NCBI GenBank assembly: GCA_963664115.2 | Contig: CAXWPJ010000009.1 | Span: forward strand, 448,001-512,000 | DNA from: Terriglobia bacterium | Lineage (GTDB): Bacteria > Acidobacteriota > Terriglobia > 20CM-2-55-15 | Length of the DNA: 64,000 bases | Direction: 5' to 3' | Part shown: piece by piece, positions 5,312 through 12,027 of the stretch | How positions within the stretch are numbered: the stretch's first letter is position 1 | Layout: the number at the start of each line of letters is the position of its first letter | The notes under the pieces: model-generated | The model's input: the letters and a program-made list of their open reading frames with translations, nothing else | What the model was told of the DNA's origin: nothing | Databases searched by the model: none | Translations under genes and position numbers: made by a program

Positions 5312-6326
5312 CTTTGCAAAATGTGCAGGCTGAGCGGGCAAATTAAGTCCAGGGGACCTGGACCGCGCGCTAAAAGGCCTGCAGTTGCAGCGAATTCCCG
5401 AAATTCTTGTCGGTTTCGATCAGGCCGACGACGCCGGAGTATATCGACTCACCGACAAGCTCGCTCTAGTTCAGACCGTCGATTTCTTCTCGCCTATCGT
5501 TGACGACGCTTTCGCGTTTGGACAGATCGCTGCCGTGAACGCCTTGAGCGACATATACGCGATGGGTGGCACGCCACTGACGGCGCTATCCATTGTCGGC
5601 TTTCCGGAAGGCGTGGCCGGCCCCGGCGTGCTTCGGGAAATCATTGAGGGGGGTCTGGACAAACTTAATGAATGTGCGGTGGCCTTGCTGGGCGGCCATT
5701 CGGTGAAGGACGAGGAAATAAAGTTCGGATACGCGGTGACCGGAACAGTGGACCCTGCACGTATTCTACAGAACAGCGCCGCGCGCGTCGGGGATCGGGT
5801 GTTGCTTACGAAGCGCCTGGGGACGGGTCTGATCGCGACCGCATCAAAAAGAGACCAGGCAGAGGCCGCTCATGTCGAGCGTGCCGTCCGGTCGATGCTC
5901 GAAACCAACCGGAAGGCGGCTGAAATCGTTTCCGGTTTCGACGTTCGAGCGATGACCGACATCAGCGGTTTCGGGCTCATAGGCCATGCAGTCGAAGTGG
6001 CGCGTGCCAGCAATCTGACCATCGAGTTCGACCATAAGCGCTTGCCGATTCTTGATGGCGCACTGGACTACAGCGCGAAAGGTTATCGAGCGGGTGGCCT
6101 CAACAACAATCGCGACTTCTTTTCCCCTCACGTTAGCTGGAAAGGGACGATATCTGAAGACCATCAGGGCATCCTCTTCGACCCCCAGACCTCTGGAGGA
6201 CTCCTCATTTTTGTCTCTGAAACAAATTGTGCAGGCCTGATTGACGCGCTTGGAAGCGAGGATATCGTTGTGTGTGAAGTTGGCATCGCGCGGACCCTCG
6301 ATGACACCTGCATCCATATCTTCTGA
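5298..6326 (+). CDS. selD: Selenide, water dikinase SelD, selenocysteine-containing (in-frame TGA 5331-5333)
   Basis: ATG 5298 after GAAGGAG reads MRLTDFAKCAG-TGA-AGKLSPGDL, in frame with ORF 5385-6326 (DDAGVY, QTVDFF, GGHS, DPQTSGGLL). Confidence 0.95.
5347..5363 (+). promoter_or_regulatory. Putative bacterial SECIS hairpin
   Basis: GTCCAGG-GGA-CCTGGAC stem-loop starting 13 nt after the in-frame TGA of selD. Confidence 0.75.
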
Positions 6327-6679
6327 CCCTTTTGTGGCCTGAGCTCGAGCCCGCCTGGTGCGGGAAAATCTTAAGATCAAAACGGGCCCCGTTTCGGGGA
6401 TCGGGCGTGTCAGTTTCTTGTCGCCGTTTCCTCTCTTGCCTCCAAGGTGCTCCTCTGCGAAATCGCCACGGGAAACCCAGAAATAACCGCCGATGCTTAG
6501 TTCCCGATTGTGTAGGACTGGCGTGTGCTGACCCTGTGTAGTTAGGTATCAGGATTGCCTGATACGGCACCATAAAGCGATCGAGTTTCCCTCAACGACA
6601 TGGTCGCCTCAATCACCCGCCAATACCCGCTAAACCGCTAATGTCTATAGACTTAAGGCTGAATAGAATTTTTTAGACT

Positions 6680-6726
6680 CCCCTCTATGTTGGGGAGATT
6701 TTTATCGGTGCCACAAGATATGGGCG
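6680..6726. promoter_or_regulatory. Tandem NrdR-box-like sites
   Basis: CCCCTCTATGTTGGGG (6680-6695) and CCACAAGATATGGGCG (6711-6726) resemble acaCwAtATaTwGtgt, with starts 31 bp apart. Confidence 0.5.
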
Positions 6727-6779
6727 TAAGGTAGACCTAATCTGTCTCTAACGGGGCGTAGGGTAATGGCGTTGAGTCG

Positions 6780-6856
6780 GCCCGGGTGCCGAAGTCTGGC
6801 CAAACGGCGCTCCCCAGCAAGGTTGCGAACCGTCGGTTCGAATCCGACCCCGGGCT
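6780..6856 (+). tRNA. tRNA-like gene / pseudo-tRNA with a disrupted anticodon arm (loop CCAGCAA)
   Basis: Acceptor GCCCGGG/CCCGGGC plus U73, D arm with GG, perfect T arm GTCGG-TTCGAAT-CCGAC; anticodon stem imperfect, no U33; no encoded CCA. Confidence 0.72.
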
Positions 6857-6858
6857 CT

Positions 6859-6943
6859 GGAGAGGTAGCTTAAAGGTAAAGCAGCGGTTTTAGGAACCGT
6901 CCATCCATAGCCGGATATGTGGGTTCGAGTCCCGCCCTCTCCG
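6859..6943 (+). tRNA. Class II tRNA with anticodon TAG (Leu) but Ser-like acceptor and G73
   Basis: GGAGAGG/CCTCTCC acceptor, GCTT/AAGC D stem, GCGGT-TTTAGGA-ACCGT anticodon arm, 18-nt variable arm, GTGGG-TTCGAGT-CCCGC T arm, discriminator G; no encoded CCA. Confidence 0.85.
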
Positions 6944-6994
6944 CTTCTAGCCTATACCCTATTGTCAAGCCGGGACAGCTCTGGTCCAAAAGCC

Positions 6995-7024
6995 GGTATT
7001 AATTCGGTAATAAAGGGGTATTAT
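6995..7024 (+). promoter_or_regulatory. Three helically phased direct repeats (GGTAWTAW), putative RHH operator
   Basis: GGTATTAA 6995, GGTAATAA 7006 and GGTATTAT 7017 at 11-bp spacing, just upstream of ATG 7041. Confidence 0.5.
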
Positions 7025-7130
7025 TGTCCTTAATATCCCAATGCCTTCTAGCAAGAAAAAGACGGGCGGTCGCCCGGCGAACATCGTCCGGGCGGTGACG
7101 CTCACGATTTCAACGACCGCGATGAACGAG

Positions 7131-8515
7131 GAGTTATTGTCAAAAGTGGTGTTTAGGAGATTGATTCAAGCGGCGGCCTGATCGACTTGTGTCGCTTCGA
7201 CACCATCGTTGAATTTCACTCCGATGATTACCTTGCTCAGATCATCGAATCCTCGTAATCGTCGCCAATTGTTCTCAGCGCACTGGCCCAGTTTGAACAT
7301 CATGTGCAGCATGCCATCCCGTGTCAGGCAACCTCTGGATCGCTTCGTTCGGTGTCGAATGGTGGCAAAGGTCGACTCAATGGGATTCGTCGTTCTGATG
7401 CTCTGCCAGTGCTTGGCCGGAAAGTCGTAAAAGGCCAGCAGTTCCTCTCTGTCTTTCTGCAGGCAGAGTGTGGCTTTCGGATACTTCGGTTCATAGGTTT
7501 CAATGAACAAGTCGAATGCCTTCTCGGCGTCTGCCTTCGTCTCGGCCTGCCAGATCGAGTGCAGGGCCTGTTTCGCCTTCGCCTGGACCGACTTGGGCAG
7601 GCAGTTGAGGACGTTCATGACTTTGTGCATCCAGCAACGTTGTTGACGTGTCTCGGGATAGATTTCCTCCAGTGCGGCCCAGAACCCCATCGCACCGTCA
7701 CCGATGGCCAACTTCGGAACATTCATCCCACGGGACTTCAGCTTCAACAAGACCTCGCGCCAACTCTGTGTCGATTCCCGTACACCGTCTTCGATCGCCA
7801 GGAAACGCTTCTCTCCGCGTTCATTCACGCCGATCACGACCAATGCACACAACTTGGTTTGTTCCGCCCGAAGTCCGCTGTAGATGCCGTCGGCCCAGAC
7901 ATAGACCCAGCGATCTGCATCCAAACGCTCCTCGCATCCGAGGCGGTACTGTTCGCCCCAAACCTGTTTCAACCGCGATACCGTGCTCGCCGACAGACCC
8001 TGCGCCTGGGGACCGACAAGAACTTTTAGGGCCTCACCCATCTCGCCGCTGGAAACGCCTTTCAAATACAACCACGGCACCGCTGCTTCCAGCGACTTCG
8101 TCTTCCGAATGTACGGTGGTACCAGGGCCGATCGGAACGTCACAGCTTCGCCCGTCTTGGCACGGACCTTCGGGATTTGGACTGTTACCGGACCCAATCC
8201 CGTCTGCAGTTCGCGTTCCGGCAGATAACCGTTGCGTACCACCCCGGCGTTTCCTGTCTCAGTTCGCCGGCCACCGTGCTGGGATAGCAGCTCTGCCAAT
8301 TCGGCTTCCACTGCGCGTTGGATCAGTTGCTGTGCCCCAACTCGTAGTAGTTCTGTTACTGGATCCTCAATCGTTTCTCGACCTTCCGGTCCATTCACGT
8401 TACTCTTGCTCACAGTGGCGTATCTCCTATGGTTGCTTTGAAGTTTTGTCACAACAAATCAACCAGATACGCCGCTCTTATTCAATCCCTCAAACACCAG
8501 ATTCGGTTATAACTC
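7131..8515 (-). mobile_element. IS256-family insertion sequence (1385 bp)
   Basis: Imperfect IRs GAGTTATTGTCAAAAGTGGTGTTT / GAGTTATAACCGAATCTGGTGTTT; 9-bp TSD ATGAACGAG at 7122-7130 and 8516-8524. Confidence 0.95.
7166..8413 (-). CDS. IS256-family transposase
   Basis: RNGY, YLKGVS, WADG, IGDG, QRCWMHK, IRTTNPIES motifs; likely GTG start at 8413 after AGGAGA. Confidence 0.95.
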   Translation of the reverse strand: MSKSNVNGPEGRETIEDPVTELLRVGAQQLIQRAVEAELAELLSQHGGRRTETGNAGVVRNGYLPERELQTGLGPVTVQIPKVRAKTGEAVTFRSALVPPYIRKTKSLEAAVPWLYLKGVSSGEMGEALKVLVGPQAQGLSASTVSRLKQVWGEQYRLGCEERLDADRWVYVWADGIYSGLRAEQTKLCALVVIGVNERGEKRFLAIEDGVRESTQSWREVLLKLKSRGMNVPKLAIGDGAMGFWAALEEIYPETRQQRCWMHKVMNVLNCLPKSVQAKAKQALHSIWQAETKADAEKAFDLFIETYEPKYPKATLCLQKDREELLAFYDFPAKHWQSIRTTNPIESTFATIRHRTKRSRGCLTRDGMLHMMFKLGQCAENNWRRLRGFDDLSKVIIGVKFNDGVEATQVDQAAA

Positions 8516-8919
8516 ATGAACGAGAAATATCTGCGGCAATTGGTTTTCAAAGGACAGAAGGGGAAGAACCTGAATGAAGCCGCTGAGCGAGTCATCGGCG
8601 ATCACATCGAGCATCTTCTGAGGTTGGGTGAACTAGCTCCAATGGAACAGTCCCCAGAAGACCTGGTGCCCACGGGCGAAGACGACTAGAAATTAAAAGT
8701 AAAAGTTAAATCTGTACCATTCTGACCTGTCGCGCCGCAATCAAGATTCACAATCCACTGGATAGTGTTAAGCTGCGATGCTAGTATTCTCCTTGTCATT
8801 AGTTCTGACCATTTTCGTCAAGCAACCTTAATTTGGATATTTCTAAAGGGTCCATTCCCATTGGACGATAAGCGGAATACAAGGGGAGAGTTTTATCCCT
8901 AATATCCGTCTAATATAAT

Positions 8920-9249
8920 ATGGCAACACAGCAGGCAATGGTCGGAGCACAGTTTCAACTATTTGGTACGTTCAAGAAACGTGGCAACTGGTACATTGCG
9001 CATTGTCCTCCGCTGGATATAACTACCCAAGGACGAACACGTGCCGAGGCTCGACGGAATCTAATTGAGGCAAGCGAATTGTTTTTAATAAGCTGCCTTG
9101 AAAGGGGAACGCTTGACCTCGCGATGCGTGAGTTGGGCTTTGTCCCGATGGGAAGACCCACTACACGCCGACTCCCACAGAACGCCTTTAAATTTCAAGC
9201 TCCGATCCCGCTCGTCTTCCAGCGCCGCACAGCGGAATGCCGCGTCTAA
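8920..9249 (+). CDS. hicB: HicB-like antitoxin
   Basis: YIAHCPPLDITTQGRTRAEARRNLIEA partial RNase H-like fold; overlaps the hicA start. Confidence 0.85.
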   Translation: MATQQAMVGAQFQLFGTFKKRGNWYIAHCPPLDITTQGRTRAEARRNLIEASELFLISCLERGTLDLAMRELGFVPMGRPTTRRLPQNAFKFQAPIPLVFQRRTAECRV

Positions 9250-9449
9250 CACCGCTTTCTTGGGAAAAACTAGTTTGTGTGTTTCAAAGCATCGGCTACC
9301 GCCGAGCCGGGCAAAAGGGAAGCCACATTAAGCTTGAAAAAGCCGGCGTCTCTCGGCCCCTTATCATCCCGCGATATTCCGATATTGGACCGGACATAAC
9401 CACCAACCTTATCCGGACCGCGAACATCAGTCGACTTCATAACTGCTAA
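9237..9449 (+). CDS. hicA: HicA-family mRNA interferase toxin
   Basis: 70 aa with GYRRAGQKGSHIKL (conserved GSH); C-terminus may be slightly clipped. Confidence 0.85.
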   Translation: MPRLTPLSWEKLVCVFQSIGYRRAGQKGSHIKLEKAGVSRPLIIPRYSDIGPDITTNLIRTANISRLHNC

Positions 9450-9467
9450 TTTCCACTTGTGTACATG

Positions 9468-9483
9468 TGTATCATATGATACA
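9468..9483. promoter_or_regulatory. Perfect palindrome TGTATCATATGATACA, putative operator
   Basis: 16-bp perfect palindrome 8 bp upstream of the RHH gene start at 9492. Confidence 0.55.
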
Positions 9484-9491
9484 TTGCATAC

Positions 9492-9650
9492 ATGTCAACC
9501 AAGACCATCAATCTACGCGACATGCCGGAGGATCTAGTGAGGCAAGCCAAGGCCAACGCCGCCTTGCAGGGTCTAAGCCTAAAAGCTTTTATCATTGCCC
9601 TACTAGAAAAGGCTGTCCGACAGGGGAATAAACTGAAGAAAGCGAAATAG
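9492..9650 (+). CDS. Small Arc/FitA-like ribbon-helix-helix protein (52 aa, below the ORF-track cutoff)
   Basis: MSTKTINLRDMPEDLVRQAKANAALQGLSLKAFIIALLEKAVRQGNKLKKAK shows the RHH strand-helix-helix pattern. Confidence 0.8.
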   Translation: MSTKTINLRDMPEDLVRQAKANAALQGLSLKAFIIALLEKAVRQGNKLKKAK

Positions 9651-9776
9651 AAACGAAACGGCCCTGCCCGGTGCTACTAACACCAAACAGGGCCTAACCA
9701 ACTCACGCGATAGAGCCGCATGAGCCAGCCATCAAACTCATTGTGAGCCTGTCCGCGTGGAAAGGCAAGGTTCACA

Positions 9777-10760
9777 ATGACCTGCATCCACTGCCAACAC
9801 GCCCGAATTAGAAAGTCCGGCACCTACGGAAAGAAACGCATCCAGCGTTACCGCTGCACCTTCTGCGATAAGACATTTTCCGAACCCCAGCCGAAACCCC
9901 TCGGTAAGCTCCGCATATCAGTCGAGAAGGCCGTCCAGATCGTCAATTGCCTTGTTGAAGGCTGTGGTATCCGCTCCACGGCGAGGCTGTGTGACGTAGA
10001 TTCAAAGACCGTCCTGGCAGTGCTTGAGGTAGCCGGGAAAAAGTGCCAACGATTGTTGGATCAGAAGCTGCGCAGCATTCATGCGCCACACATACAATGT
10101 GATGAAATTTGGACATTTGTTCAGAAGAAAGAAAAGCGCATCAAGCCTTGGGAAACTGGAACGGAAATCGGCAGTCAATTCATTTACGTCGCCTTTGATC
10201 GTGACTCGAAACTCGTCATCAACTACGAAATAGGAAAGCGTAGCCCCGCGACAACGCGCCTATTCGTAGCCGATCTGGAGCGCCGAGTCCTTGGACGTGT
10301 CCAAATCAGCACAGATGGATATGGAGCATATCGTCGCGCAATTGAGGACACGTTCGGGGCCAACGTCGATTACGCTCAACTAGTGAAGGTTTACCAGAAC
10401 GAACCCGCAAGGCGATTCTTCAGTGGAACACCATGGCGACCGAACCGGCCGCTATGCCCCTTCAAAGTTTGTACGGGCGATCCCGACTACCATATCTGGC
10501 AATCCCGAACGGAAACATATCTGTACATCCCACGTCGAACGAAACAATCTCACCATGCGGACGTTCATGCGACGACTGACAAGGCTATCGCTCGGCTTCT
10601 CAAAGAAGCTGGAGAATCTGAAACACGCGACAGCACTGTATTTCGCTTGGTACAATTTTGTCAGGATTCACAAAACATTGAGGGTGACACCGGCGATGGA
10701 AAGCGGAGTGACCAGTCGAGTTTGGAGGCGTTGCGGATTCAAGACCTCGTGGTGGCCTAA
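9777..10760 (+). pseudogene. IS1-family transposase, frameshifted
   Basis: CxxC...CxxC zinc ribbon, HTH, CDEIWTFV and STDG in frame 9777; catalytic C-terminal part (TSHVERNNLTMR...YNF...TPAM) lies in the shifted frame 10423-10767. Confidence 0.85.
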
Positions 10761-10815
10761 AAGATAATGAACCGAAAACACACTGAAATCCCGCATTATC
10801 TAGTTCCCGGGCCCC

Positions 10816-10844
10816 TTGACAGCCCATAGTGGCAGTGCTAACCT
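10816..10844 (+). promoter_or_regulatory. Sigma70-type promoter of the atp operon
   Basis: TTGACA-N17-TAACCT with extended -10 TG. Confidence 0.7.
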
Positions 10845-10893
10845 AACTCGTTTGTTGTCAAGGGCGTCTCAGGAACTTTTCACGCTTCCTCCC

Positions 10894-11017
10894 AGTCTAG
10901 AACGATGATTAATCCGGACCTTTTTACTCTTCTCGTAACGATCATCTATGTCGCTAGTCTAGAACGATGATTAATCCGGACCTTTTTACTCTTCTCGTAA
11001 CGATCATCTATGTCGCT
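10894..11017 (+). repeat. Perfect 62-bp tandem duplication spanning the start of the b' gene
   Basis: 10894-10955 is identical to 10956-11017. Confidence 0.95.
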
Positions 11018-11389
11018 ATCCTATATGTATTTCTTTCCAAGTTTTTCTTCGGGCCGGTGACTCGGATTCTGGCCGAGCGCCGCCAGGCGATTGAGGGAAG
11101 CCTCGAAGAGGCAGCGCGCCGGATTGGAGAAGTAGAAAACAAGACGACAGAATACGAGTCCGCAGTTCGGGAGGCGCGCGCCGACGCGTACAAGCACCAG
11201 GAAGCCATTCGAGAAGAAGCGCTCGAAGAGCGTGCCCGACTGCTCAACGATGCCCGGCGCGAGGCCGGCCAGATCGTCGCCGACGCGCGGACGCGCCTGG
11301 AAACGGAAACGGCCGAGGCGCGAAAAGAGCTCGAAGGCGAAATCGACGCGCTCGCGACGCGACTTTCCGGAACGCTTCTCGAGGATTGA
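10967..11389 (+). CDS. ATP synthase F0 subunit b'
   Basis: N-terminal TM, FFGPVTRILAERR, coiled coil; first of two b-type genes. Confidence 0.88.
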   Translation: MINPDLFTLLVTIIYVAILYVFLSKFFFGPVTRILAERRQAIEGSLEEAARRIGEVENKTTEYESAVREARADAYKHQEAIREEALEERARLLNDARREAGQIVADARTRLETETAEARKELEGEIDALATRLSGTLLED

Positions 11390-11397
11390 TCATCAGA

Positions 11398-12027
11398 ATG
11401 AAAACCCGCTGGCTGTCCCTTTTCCTCCCATTTGCGATCATGCTGAGCTTGGGATTGATGCCTGCGGCTGTTTCGGCCTGGGCACAGGAAGAAGAAGGCG
11501 CACAGTCTGAAGAGTTCGGTGCTGAGGCGGGTGAAGAAGGCGAAGAGGGCGAAGAAGAGAGTGGCCTGCTCGCGGTGGCGCTGCGCTGGATCAATTTCGC
11601 CATTCTCTTTGGCGGCCTGGGCTACCTGTTGCGCCAACCTGCAGCGGAGTTTTTCGAGACACGTCGCCAGGCCATTCTCGGTGGTCTTGAGAAATCCCGA
11701 GCAGCGCAAAAAGACGCCGACGAACGCATCGCTGACGTCAACGGCCGTCTGGCTAAACTTTCGACCGAGATAGCCAGCATCGCATCGGACGCGGAAGAAT
11801 CGGCCCATAACGAGCGGGATAGGATCGTGGCCGACGCTAAGAAGGAAGTCGACCGGGCCTTGGAGCGTTCGCAATCTGAGGTCGAGCGACTGGCTGGCGG
11901 TATGGAATTGGAGATTCGGTCTCTCATTGCCGACCGTGTGGTGCAGAGTGCCGGAGAAAAGCTCCGCTCCCGACTGACCGAGCAGGACCATGGTCGCTTG
12001 GTTCGACGGGCGGTTGATGAGCTCTAG
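11398..12027 (+). CDS. atpF: ATP synthase F0 subunit b, with N-terminal signal-like segment and acidic linker
   Basis: RWINFAILFGGLGYLL TM followed by coiled coil; precedes atpH. Confidence 0.88.
   Translation: MKTRWLSLFLPFAIMLSLGLMPAAVSAWAQEEEGAQSEEFGAEAGEEGEEGEEESGLLAVALRWINFAILFGGLGYLLRQPAAEFFETRRQAILGGLEKSRAAQKDADERIADVNGRLAKLSTEIASIASDAEESAHNERDRIVADAKKEVDRALERSQSEVERLAGGMELEIRSLIADRVVQSAGEKLRSRLTEQDHGRLVRRAVDEL

Follow-up and report, generated by a model that had tools for sequence, protein, structure and literature searches.

The window analysed here is a stretch of 64,000 nt from a Terriglobia bacterium (Acidobacteriota; assembly GCA_963664115.2, contig CAXWPJ010000009.1, positions 448,001 to 512,000), and between its selD gene and the promoter of its atp operon it contains an IS1-like element of 4295 bp (6506-10800; 2901 bp after removal of an inserted IS256 element and one copy of its 9-bp duplication). 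The names on relatives of its transposase and HicB likewise point to a probable acidobacterial host. We are highly confident that this is one delimited mobile unit, and that it shares the promoter-homing habit of its family. Its limits as an insertion unit are defined, its landing position is fixed, its cargo is exchangeable, its tRNA genes have a definable anatomy, and it holds a pair of NrdR-type boxes copied from the host nrdJ promoter. As a whole explanation we lean slightly towards a promoter-homing IS1-like carrier of HicBA and of an NrdR-gated tRNA that would place serine at leucine codons.

The element is bracketed by an 8-bp direct repeat, TAGTTCCC, at 6498-6505 and 10801-10808. Its left inverted repeat (6506-6527, plus strand) is decayed and matches the end of a sister element, described below, at 16/22 positions, the right one (10779-10800, minus strand) at 17/22, and the two ends of the element agree with each other at 14/22; the repeat, the imperfect ends and the length of about 2.9 kb without IS256, all recorded in a first-pass annotation made from the sequence alone, were confirmed. 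By itself the 8-mer repeat is at chance level (1.3 expected between the two intergenic stretches); it was accepted as a target duplication because an empty site and the ends of the family fix it. In G002, a genome of the same genus, selD is joined to the atp promoter via a single TAGTTCCT, the collapse to one copy that the first-pass annotation had proposed to look for, and the site is likewise empty in the same-genus genomes G004 and G001.

A fourth genome of the genus (G003) holds the sister element at the identical base in the opposite orientation. The sister is flanked by a perfect duplication of its own, its ends are intact, and the N-terminus of its transposase is 85% identical to that of the window element. 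Judged by selD (76% identical), none of the four genomes is further removed than G003, and two independent insertions are therefore a simpler account than a single early one followed by three losses. Only the ribbon-helix-helix gene rhh2, a palindrome and the transposase leader are common to the two elements; the sister carries a helix-turn-helix (HTH)-like gene, a gene of the OMP-decarboxylase family (pyrF-like) and another serine-type tRNA with anticodon UAG, and no HicAB. The earlier view of tRNAs and HicAB as one combination accordingly held for the tRNA cargo, a trait of the family, and failed for the HicAB pairing. The sister also contains several other insertion sequences (ISs). The window element is a single copy, altered at the second base of both ends and with IS256 inside, i.e. 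an ageing copy. Neither an empty allele nor a circle junction was seen in the contigs of four read sets (four public runs from four studies). With the empty site, the shared ends and the 8-bp duplications in relatives, the proposal of a single delimited mobile unit was upheld.

The transposase gene (9777-10730, plus strand) encodes a Zn finger, an HTH and a D-D-E triad, and lies in two frames in the window, with a break between 10414 and 10447; in relatives a single frame of about 315 codons encodes the enzyme. In an alignment of 36 rows, C3/C6/C28/C31, D108, D179 and E244 were conserved at 90% or more. The structural model (pLDDT 87) has an RNase H-type fold; the top match in a fold search was ISCth4, for the core only (TM 0.38), and a sequence search found no solved IS1 transposase. 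Against NF033558 (IS1 transposase, cut-off 100 bits) the two window frames scored 90.6 and 17.6 bits and intact relatives 94.5, 92.2 and 59.4 bits, this being the best family in each, and RefSeq labels three of four plasmid relatives 'IS1 family transposase'. Duplications of 8 bp flank the window element, the sister and the relatives, and were required in the later locus searches. IS1 terminal repeats start GG(T)AATG-like; the ends of 69 elements were GGTAGTG (57), GGTAATG (10) and GATAGTG (2), obtained with a search pattern that favoured such ends.

In classical IS1 (InsA/InsB') a programmed -1 shift links two frames; membership of that group was rejected on the grounds that relatives are single-frame and that the break in the window is missing from the four read sets. 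The element is therefore filed as IS1-like, not classical IS1, and the first-pass assignment to an IS1-type transposase is sound in that sense. The check that it had proposed on transposase homologues showed that they share these ends and that tRNA cargo is a trait of the family. With IS1 elements that bear passenger genes, the nearest of which we take to be the ISMhu11-type group, it shares the Zn-finger/HTH/DDE transposase, the 8-bp duplication and GGTA(G/A)TG ends; it differs in its single frame, a score below the NCBIfam IS1 cut-off, the fixed promoter landing and the tRNA cargo. The targets of the family, unlike those of IS1, are not AT-rich (GC 0.58).

The fixed landing position is defined by the atp operon promoter match (10816-10844, plus strand; TTGACA, a 17-base spacer and TAACCT), which starts 15 bases from the end of the element and is left whole by the insertion. 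A first site set was built from 217 loci with a related transposase, 80 of which had both ends and an 8-bp duplication; together with the window element and the sister these 82 gave 71 distinct sites, or 70 once the shared atp site was merged. TTGACA, the sigma70-type -35 box (at most one mismatch), started 7 bases past the duplication at 17 of the 70 sites, when the other 59 offsets had a mean of 0.68 and a maximum of 4. This offset was discovered in the first set, and the count was repeated by unchanged rules on 64 fresh loci (60 transposase matches and 4 plasmids, leaving out loci near contig ends or already in the first set): 41 had ends, 10 of them had the box at offset 7, and elsewhere the mean was 0.22 and the maximum 2. 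A -10-like TA...T hexamer followed 16-18 bases downstream in 7/17 box sites, compared to 0-2 in non-overlapping bins, and the promoter lay to the right of the element in eight cases, to the left in eight and on both sides in one. Homing did not depend on tRNA cargo (5/21 carriers, 12/49 others). Mimicry of the inverted repeat was rejected as its cause, as Zn-finger elements without TTGA in their ends home too (9/32 vs 8/38).

The adjacency to promoters could also be a survival bias, random insertion being followed by the persistence of harmless copies near promoters. In its favour, the box is absent at offset 7 in 84/111 sites (present in 27/111), which likewise weighs against homing as a strict rule, the habit being either a preference or directed also at remaining promoters that differ; and an unrelated IS with a long direct repeat lies directly upstream of the same atp -35 box in another genus (L336, G021:C46:241300-242800). 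We nevertheless regard survival bias as very improbable, given a single-base peak replicated in the fresh set, two independent insertions at one base (window and G003), elements stacked end to end at 7/71 sites, two of which are the two sides of one pair, and the lack of such a peak at IS256 sites of the same genome (0/25 with the box at offset 7). In the mechanism that we propose, the transposase would find its site via promoter-bound RNA polymerase or the -35 DNA itself, and homing to promoters would give it a landing place that breaks no gene.

Insertion in the same class of fixed distance is described for TnGBS, ISLre2 and ISKra4 (Mutator-like), 15-17 bases upstream of the -35 box, in the accessible text of PMC3942029; the window family, at 15 bases, differs in an unrelated transposase with no PF00872 match, and it inserts in either orientation, like a subset of ISKra4 only. 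Fixed-distance promoter homing of IS1 was unreported in the literature searched, IS1 reviews and ISfinder lying outside that search, and is not addressed in the accessible part of PMC7780238. The homing of an IS1-type enzyme is apparently new, the lack of an earlier report being no proof of novelty. With it, an enzyme of this type is added to the few transposases that insert at a set distance from promoters, and a gene-sparing, single-frame transposase of 315 residues offers a small system in which to study how such enzymes recognise the transcription machinery. New here are the statistics of IS1-type homing, the sister at the same base, and the NrdR capture described below.

Two members of the family were met at other promoters: L016, a second IS1-like element of the genome, also lies 7 bases from a TTGACA, and L253 is at the promoter of a Thr-Tyr-Gly-Thr tRNA operon.

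The tRNA-like genes stand in tandem. tRNA2 (6859-6943, plus strand), called by ARAGORN and matching Rfam RF00005 with 61.3 bits, is a fully paired 7/5 tRNA with a long variable arm, a D arm of 4-bp stem and 7-base loop, anticodon UAG, G37 and G73; CCA is not encoded. tRNA1 (6780-6856, plus strand) is a degenerate short-arm tRNA with U73, AGC in a disturbed anticodon arm and no G3:U70; its acceptor and T arms are good, its anticodon stem is broken, and it is missed at default tRNA-finder settings. The tRNA region is unchanged in 4/4 read sets. The predicted pair of tRNA-like genes was thus borne out for tRNA2 and, for tRNA1, in degenerate form. Rfam over 5500-12000 returned nothing except tRNA.

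The acceptor stem and G73 of tRNA2 are identical to those of host Ser(CGA) and Ser(GCU), and the host genome has its own Leu(UAG). When 400 genomes of the phylum were searched with the pair, T-arm matches and tRNA-Ser were the only hits; the closest full-length matches to tRNA2 were tRNA-Ser(UGA) (74-76%, same D arm), and in G428 a tRNA-Ser(UGA) was the sole match to its anticodon arm. Phages and plasmids held no close relatives of the pair. Five viral matches to the tRNA2 anticodon arm were found, four of them ARAGORN tRNA-Leu(UAG) beside other tRNAs. No close relative of the pair, then, occurred away from a transposase in these genomes, phages and plasmids, the independent occurrence that the first-pass annotation had suggested looking for. 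Relative to the Ser(UGA) relatives, the loop of tRNA2 is altered at 35, 36 and 37 at once; anticodons with G36 are usually followed by G37 in decoding tRNAs. The same G37 is found in two other serine-type UAG tRNAs of different elements (G003, L351), and all three UAG tRNAs have G73 and the serine acceptor stem.

As host seryl-tRNA synthetase (SerRS) ignores the anticodon, it would charge tRNA2, which would compete with host tRNA-Leu(UAG) and place serine at CUA codons. We put serylation and decoding of tRNA2 at a little better than an even prospect. In E. coli, tRNAs of serine identity that carried Leu anticodons inserted Ser and were lethal (PMC5389517, accessible text), and by this analogy tRNA2 is likely a Leu-to-Ser missense tRNA.

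Several observations weigh against this reading. CTA makes up 6/8 Leu codons of rhh2, as against 3% of host Leu codons, so that a mistranslating tRNA would damage the cargo; an A15:U48 pair and a single unpaired base in the variable arm of tRNA2, both also present in its Ser(UGA) relatives, are leucine-like; and an RNA run gave no coverage anywhere in 6250-7113. In runs X14 and X20 the matches within 6250-7190 were to IS256 alone, and so say nothing on habitat or expression. Mukai et al. found most of the allo-tRNA(UAU) that they tried to be inactive in translation, six bodies failing to decode in E. coli (PMC5389517, in the part available).

The codon usage of the cargo raises the alternative that tRNA2 is charged with leucine and supplements rare CUA for the genes of the element itself, the unit and its homing being unchanged. 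CTA accounts for 3.1 per 1000 host codons, its excess in rhh2 over the rest of the element has a Fisher p of 0.002, and it forms 3/6 Leu codons in the rhh of the sister; A15:U48 and G37, too, would suit a leucine tRNA. Set against this are the G73 and serine acceptor stem of all three UAG tRNAs, the existing host Leu(UAG), the rhh of L240 with 3/6 CTA though no tRNA was detected there, and the inclusion of the stop reader UUA among the anticodons of the family, and we consider leucine charging unlikely. Self-recoding was rejected: none of the 3 CTA and 8 CTG codons of the transposase falls at a serine position of the alignment (Ser at most 0.10), and in-frame TAA is absent from L272/L293, an element with an ochre tRNA. 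Enrichment of cognate codons in the cargo of other elements gave no clear pattern among the matches listed.

Similar tRNA genes recur in the family. A tRNA-like gene with mismatches between body and anticodon was present in 20/69 other delimited elements, compared to 2.6 tRNA-like genes per shuffled set (ARAGORN part), the T-loop filter having been widened after the first matches were known, and in 8/41 fresh elements, some doubtful. Carriers cluster on the transposase tree (10 changes vs 17.5 shuffled, 0/500), and the window element sits in a clade of 17 rows, 11 of which carry tRNA; the tree came from a quick search only, with 3/69 elements lacking a 200-residue frame and the row of L016 (wrong frame) disregarded. 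By tRNA identity rules, Ser anticodons occur here on Arg-type bodies, UCC or UUA on Leu bodies and GUA on long-arm bodies with G73; relatives of the window element also carry true allo forms, both 8/4 and 9/3. Ochre-reading UUA tRNAs (ARAGORN) with serine- and leucine-type bodies lie beside family transposases in L064, L272/L293, L348 and L350. L016:3604-3678 and L289 hold tRNA-like genes with C19 and G56 instead of G19 and C56, a swapped tertiary pair, and L016 (G000:C9:318579-322654), itself split by IS256, has a short-arm GCU tRNA 124 bases before its transposase and a toxin/HTH-type pair.

These surveys bear on a further possibility, that the tRNAs do not decode and are structured RNAs, anticodon-nuclease decoys, processing signals upstream of the transposase or neutral hitch-hikers, with the host-derived pieces described below as functionless scars. 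The tRNA gene of most relatives is found beside the leader, 120-310 bases ahead of the transposase start, and many of these tRNAs are distorted; the broken anticodon stem of tRNA1, the failure of the six allo-tRNA(UAU) bodies and an apparent thinning of the cargo in read sets X8 and X5 point the same way. tRNA2, however, is fully paired, three separate serine-type UAG tRNAs show a change at position 37 along with that of the anticodon, and in the window element and the G003 sister the tRNA is not next to the leader. We rate a non-decoding role as doubtful, if the most serious of the competing accounts.

tRNA2 was rejected as an allo-tRNA proper, being 7/5 rather than 8/4 or 9/3 and having no long D stem with tetraloop; the long variable arm, G73 and a non-serine anticodon are the allo-tRNA traits that it has. 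In common with allo-tRNAs and polycistronic irregular tRNAs, as the accessible parts of Mukai et al. (PMC5389517) and a review (PMC7609411) describe them, the window element combines serine identity with a non-serine anticodon, toxin-antitoxin (TA) neighbours and a tandem tRNA1-tRNA2 arrangement, and the tRNA1 class of the former includes GCC...GGCU forms with AGC, similar to tRNA1 here. The differences are the ordinary D arm and 7/5 form of tRNA2, and a carrier whose ends and target are defined; the accessible text of PMC5389517 links irregular tRNAs loosely to 'a transposon-related protein'. Irregular tRNAs near TA genes, hitherto orphans, thereby gain a carrier with ends, target and cargo, which makes their purpose testable with natural cassettes.

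Upstream of the tRNA genes lies the NrdR-type box pair (6680-6726; boxes 6680-6695 and 6711-6726, 15-base linker), overlapping a piece of 66 bp (6687-6752, plus strand) copied from the promoter region of host nrdJ and identical at 63/66 positions to C7:31845-31910 and at 47-52/66 to four other genus members. nrdJ encodes the host class II ribonucleotide reductase, and the host genome also encodes nrdR. Both junctions of the piece are bridged by read contigs. At the conserved positions C4 A6 A8 T9 T11 G13, box 1 agrees in 5/6 and box 2 in 6/6; pairs of this kind, with a linker of 15-16 bases, number seven in the genome, among them those of nrdJ and of the element. Two 16-bp boxes 15 bases apart are also the arrangement of NrdR operators at ribonucleotide reductase genes (PMC13584703, accessible text); the pair here differs in lying in a mobile element ahead of tRNA genes, with box 1 changed in its 5' half. 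A second host-like piece, 58 bp long (8723-8780, plus strand), resembles the 3' end of the coding sequence of a host gene at 50/58 positions and of its counterparts in four other genus members at 86-90%, and gave no match in 20 shuffles; from its N-terminal sequence we take the host gene to be mutL. The first-pass annotation had noted neither of these host-derived pieces, nor the homing to promoters.

In the proposed mechanism, the captured nrdJ piece would drive tRNA1-tRNA2, NrdR would repress it until deoxynucleoside triphosphates (dNTPs) run short, as in phage replication, and serine would be placed at CUA codons mainly when this repression lifts, making the tRNA a conditional poison of translation. 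Such an NrdR-gated, defence-like use of the tRNA is, from the boxes, a tentative and rather doubtful proposal. Against it stand the C at position 6 of box 1, in its altered 5' half, a change that weakened an E. coli NrdR box in the accessible text of PMC13584703; the lack of an NrdR pair in the cargo of other elements, where the pattern matched in 5/69, all at the transposase motif; and the absence of host-like pieces from the G003 sister. The -35 and -10 boxes could not be placed within 6687-6752. Capture of host pieces as a family habit was rejected, since the sister, L241 and three further elements from this genome showed none, and the NrdR link is unique to the window copy. If true, it would make the tRNA a regulated effector tied to dNTP supply. 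The broadest version, in which a widespread IS1-like family targets sigma70 promoters and serves as the vehicle by which code-breaking tRNAs (missense, ochre) are spread and reshuffled, the window copy acting as a nucleotide-sensing abortive-infection switch, is bolder and somewhat less probable again.

Between the tRNAs and the leader, hicA (9237-9449, plus strand) passes PF07927 with 30 bits (cut-off 27) and has the GSH motif, and overlaps a short hicB-like gene (8920-9249, plus strand) scoring 16.7 against a cut-off of 27.3 for PF21748; of the 120 homologues listed for this gene, many are named HicB. The hicB-hicA pair of the first-pass annotation is thus secure for the toxin and tentative for the antitoxin, which has HicB-named homologues and a sub-threshold family score. 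As in HicAB type II systems, a HicA family match with the GSH motif is overlapped by a HicB-like gene; in contrast to them, hicB comes first and is short, with its family match below threshold. HicBA would be cargo of an ordinary kind, serving stabilisation or defence.

We also considered post-segregational addiction, with HicA and a stable tRNA acting against cells that lose the element. TA-type cargo is frequent in relatives: a scan of 150 cargo frames, all but three of them (147) a selection from 244 distinct ones, found Panacea (2), DUF433 (2), PIN, HEPN, NYN and Gp49 with HTH, and a plasmid copy of the family carries RES-Xre. The window element, on the other hand, is a chromosomal single copy with no evident antidote to the tRNA, the sister lacks HicAB, and the main allele of run X8 has hicA interrupted at 9301 by an IS256 end (26 letters on the short side). 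The last observation weakens the addiction role proposed earlier, which we judge quite unlikely, and it counts against the favoured explanation as well, together with a depth of about 2 vs 9 for the X8 contigs over the tRNAs and hicB, contig depth being a weak measure. Of the other roles raised in the first-pass annotation, tampering with translation is likely, and an anti-phage function is supported indirectly only.

The second ribbon-helix-helix gene of the first-pass annotation, rhh2 (9492-9650, plus strand), was retained with a PF22513 score of 26.2, just below the cut-off of 27. A 16-bp palindrome (9468-9483) within a minus-strand promoter match (9498-9471, 11/12) is likely, from its sequence, the operator of rhh2, which would repress its own and the transposase transcript. 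Speculatively, the minus-strand promoter at 9498 might transcribe antisense through hicBA and the mutL-like piece. The structured transposase leader (9660-9776, plus strand), predicted from the start, gained support from covariation of its first hairpin (9660-9694, also readable as a minus-strand terminator), in which 8/11 pairs changed on both sides in 30 chosen relatives; the second hairpin folds in single sequences and failed to align across relatives. In one branch of the family (L031, L032, L277, L291, L293, L295) a TTGACA promoter and a short open frame replace the two-hairpin leader.

The gene called as the first ribbon-helix-helix regulator is an orphan of 84 codons split by IS256 into a 5' part (7041-7130) and a 3' part (8525-8689), both on the plus strand. 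It was dropped from that class, as no relative was found in Pfam, NCBIfam, Atlas or the databases; with neither family match nor homologue, the ribbon-helix-helix call was only a pattern.

The read sets differ from the window in four respects. The transposase frame break is absent from all four, the window having 31 bases net extra; the window has 8 extra bases near 10730; near 9434-9437, where hicA ends, all four read sets are longer than the window by 18 bases; and a 62-base tandem duplication over the atpF' start (10894-11017) is absent from the four read sets and three relatives. These differences are likely assembly errors, and one of the four runs may be the source of the window.

The IS256-family element (7131-8515, minus strand), with its 9-bp duplication ATGAACGAG and many identical genome copies, is a later, unrelated insertion; IS256 occurs dozens of times in identical form in the genome (G000), with many copies damaged or nested. 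The genome also contains three further cargo-bearing IS1-like elements, L017, L018 and L019 (on C6, C4 and C10), the first two of which carry an HTH/IrrE-like peptidase gene and are identical, indicating that this element moved recently.

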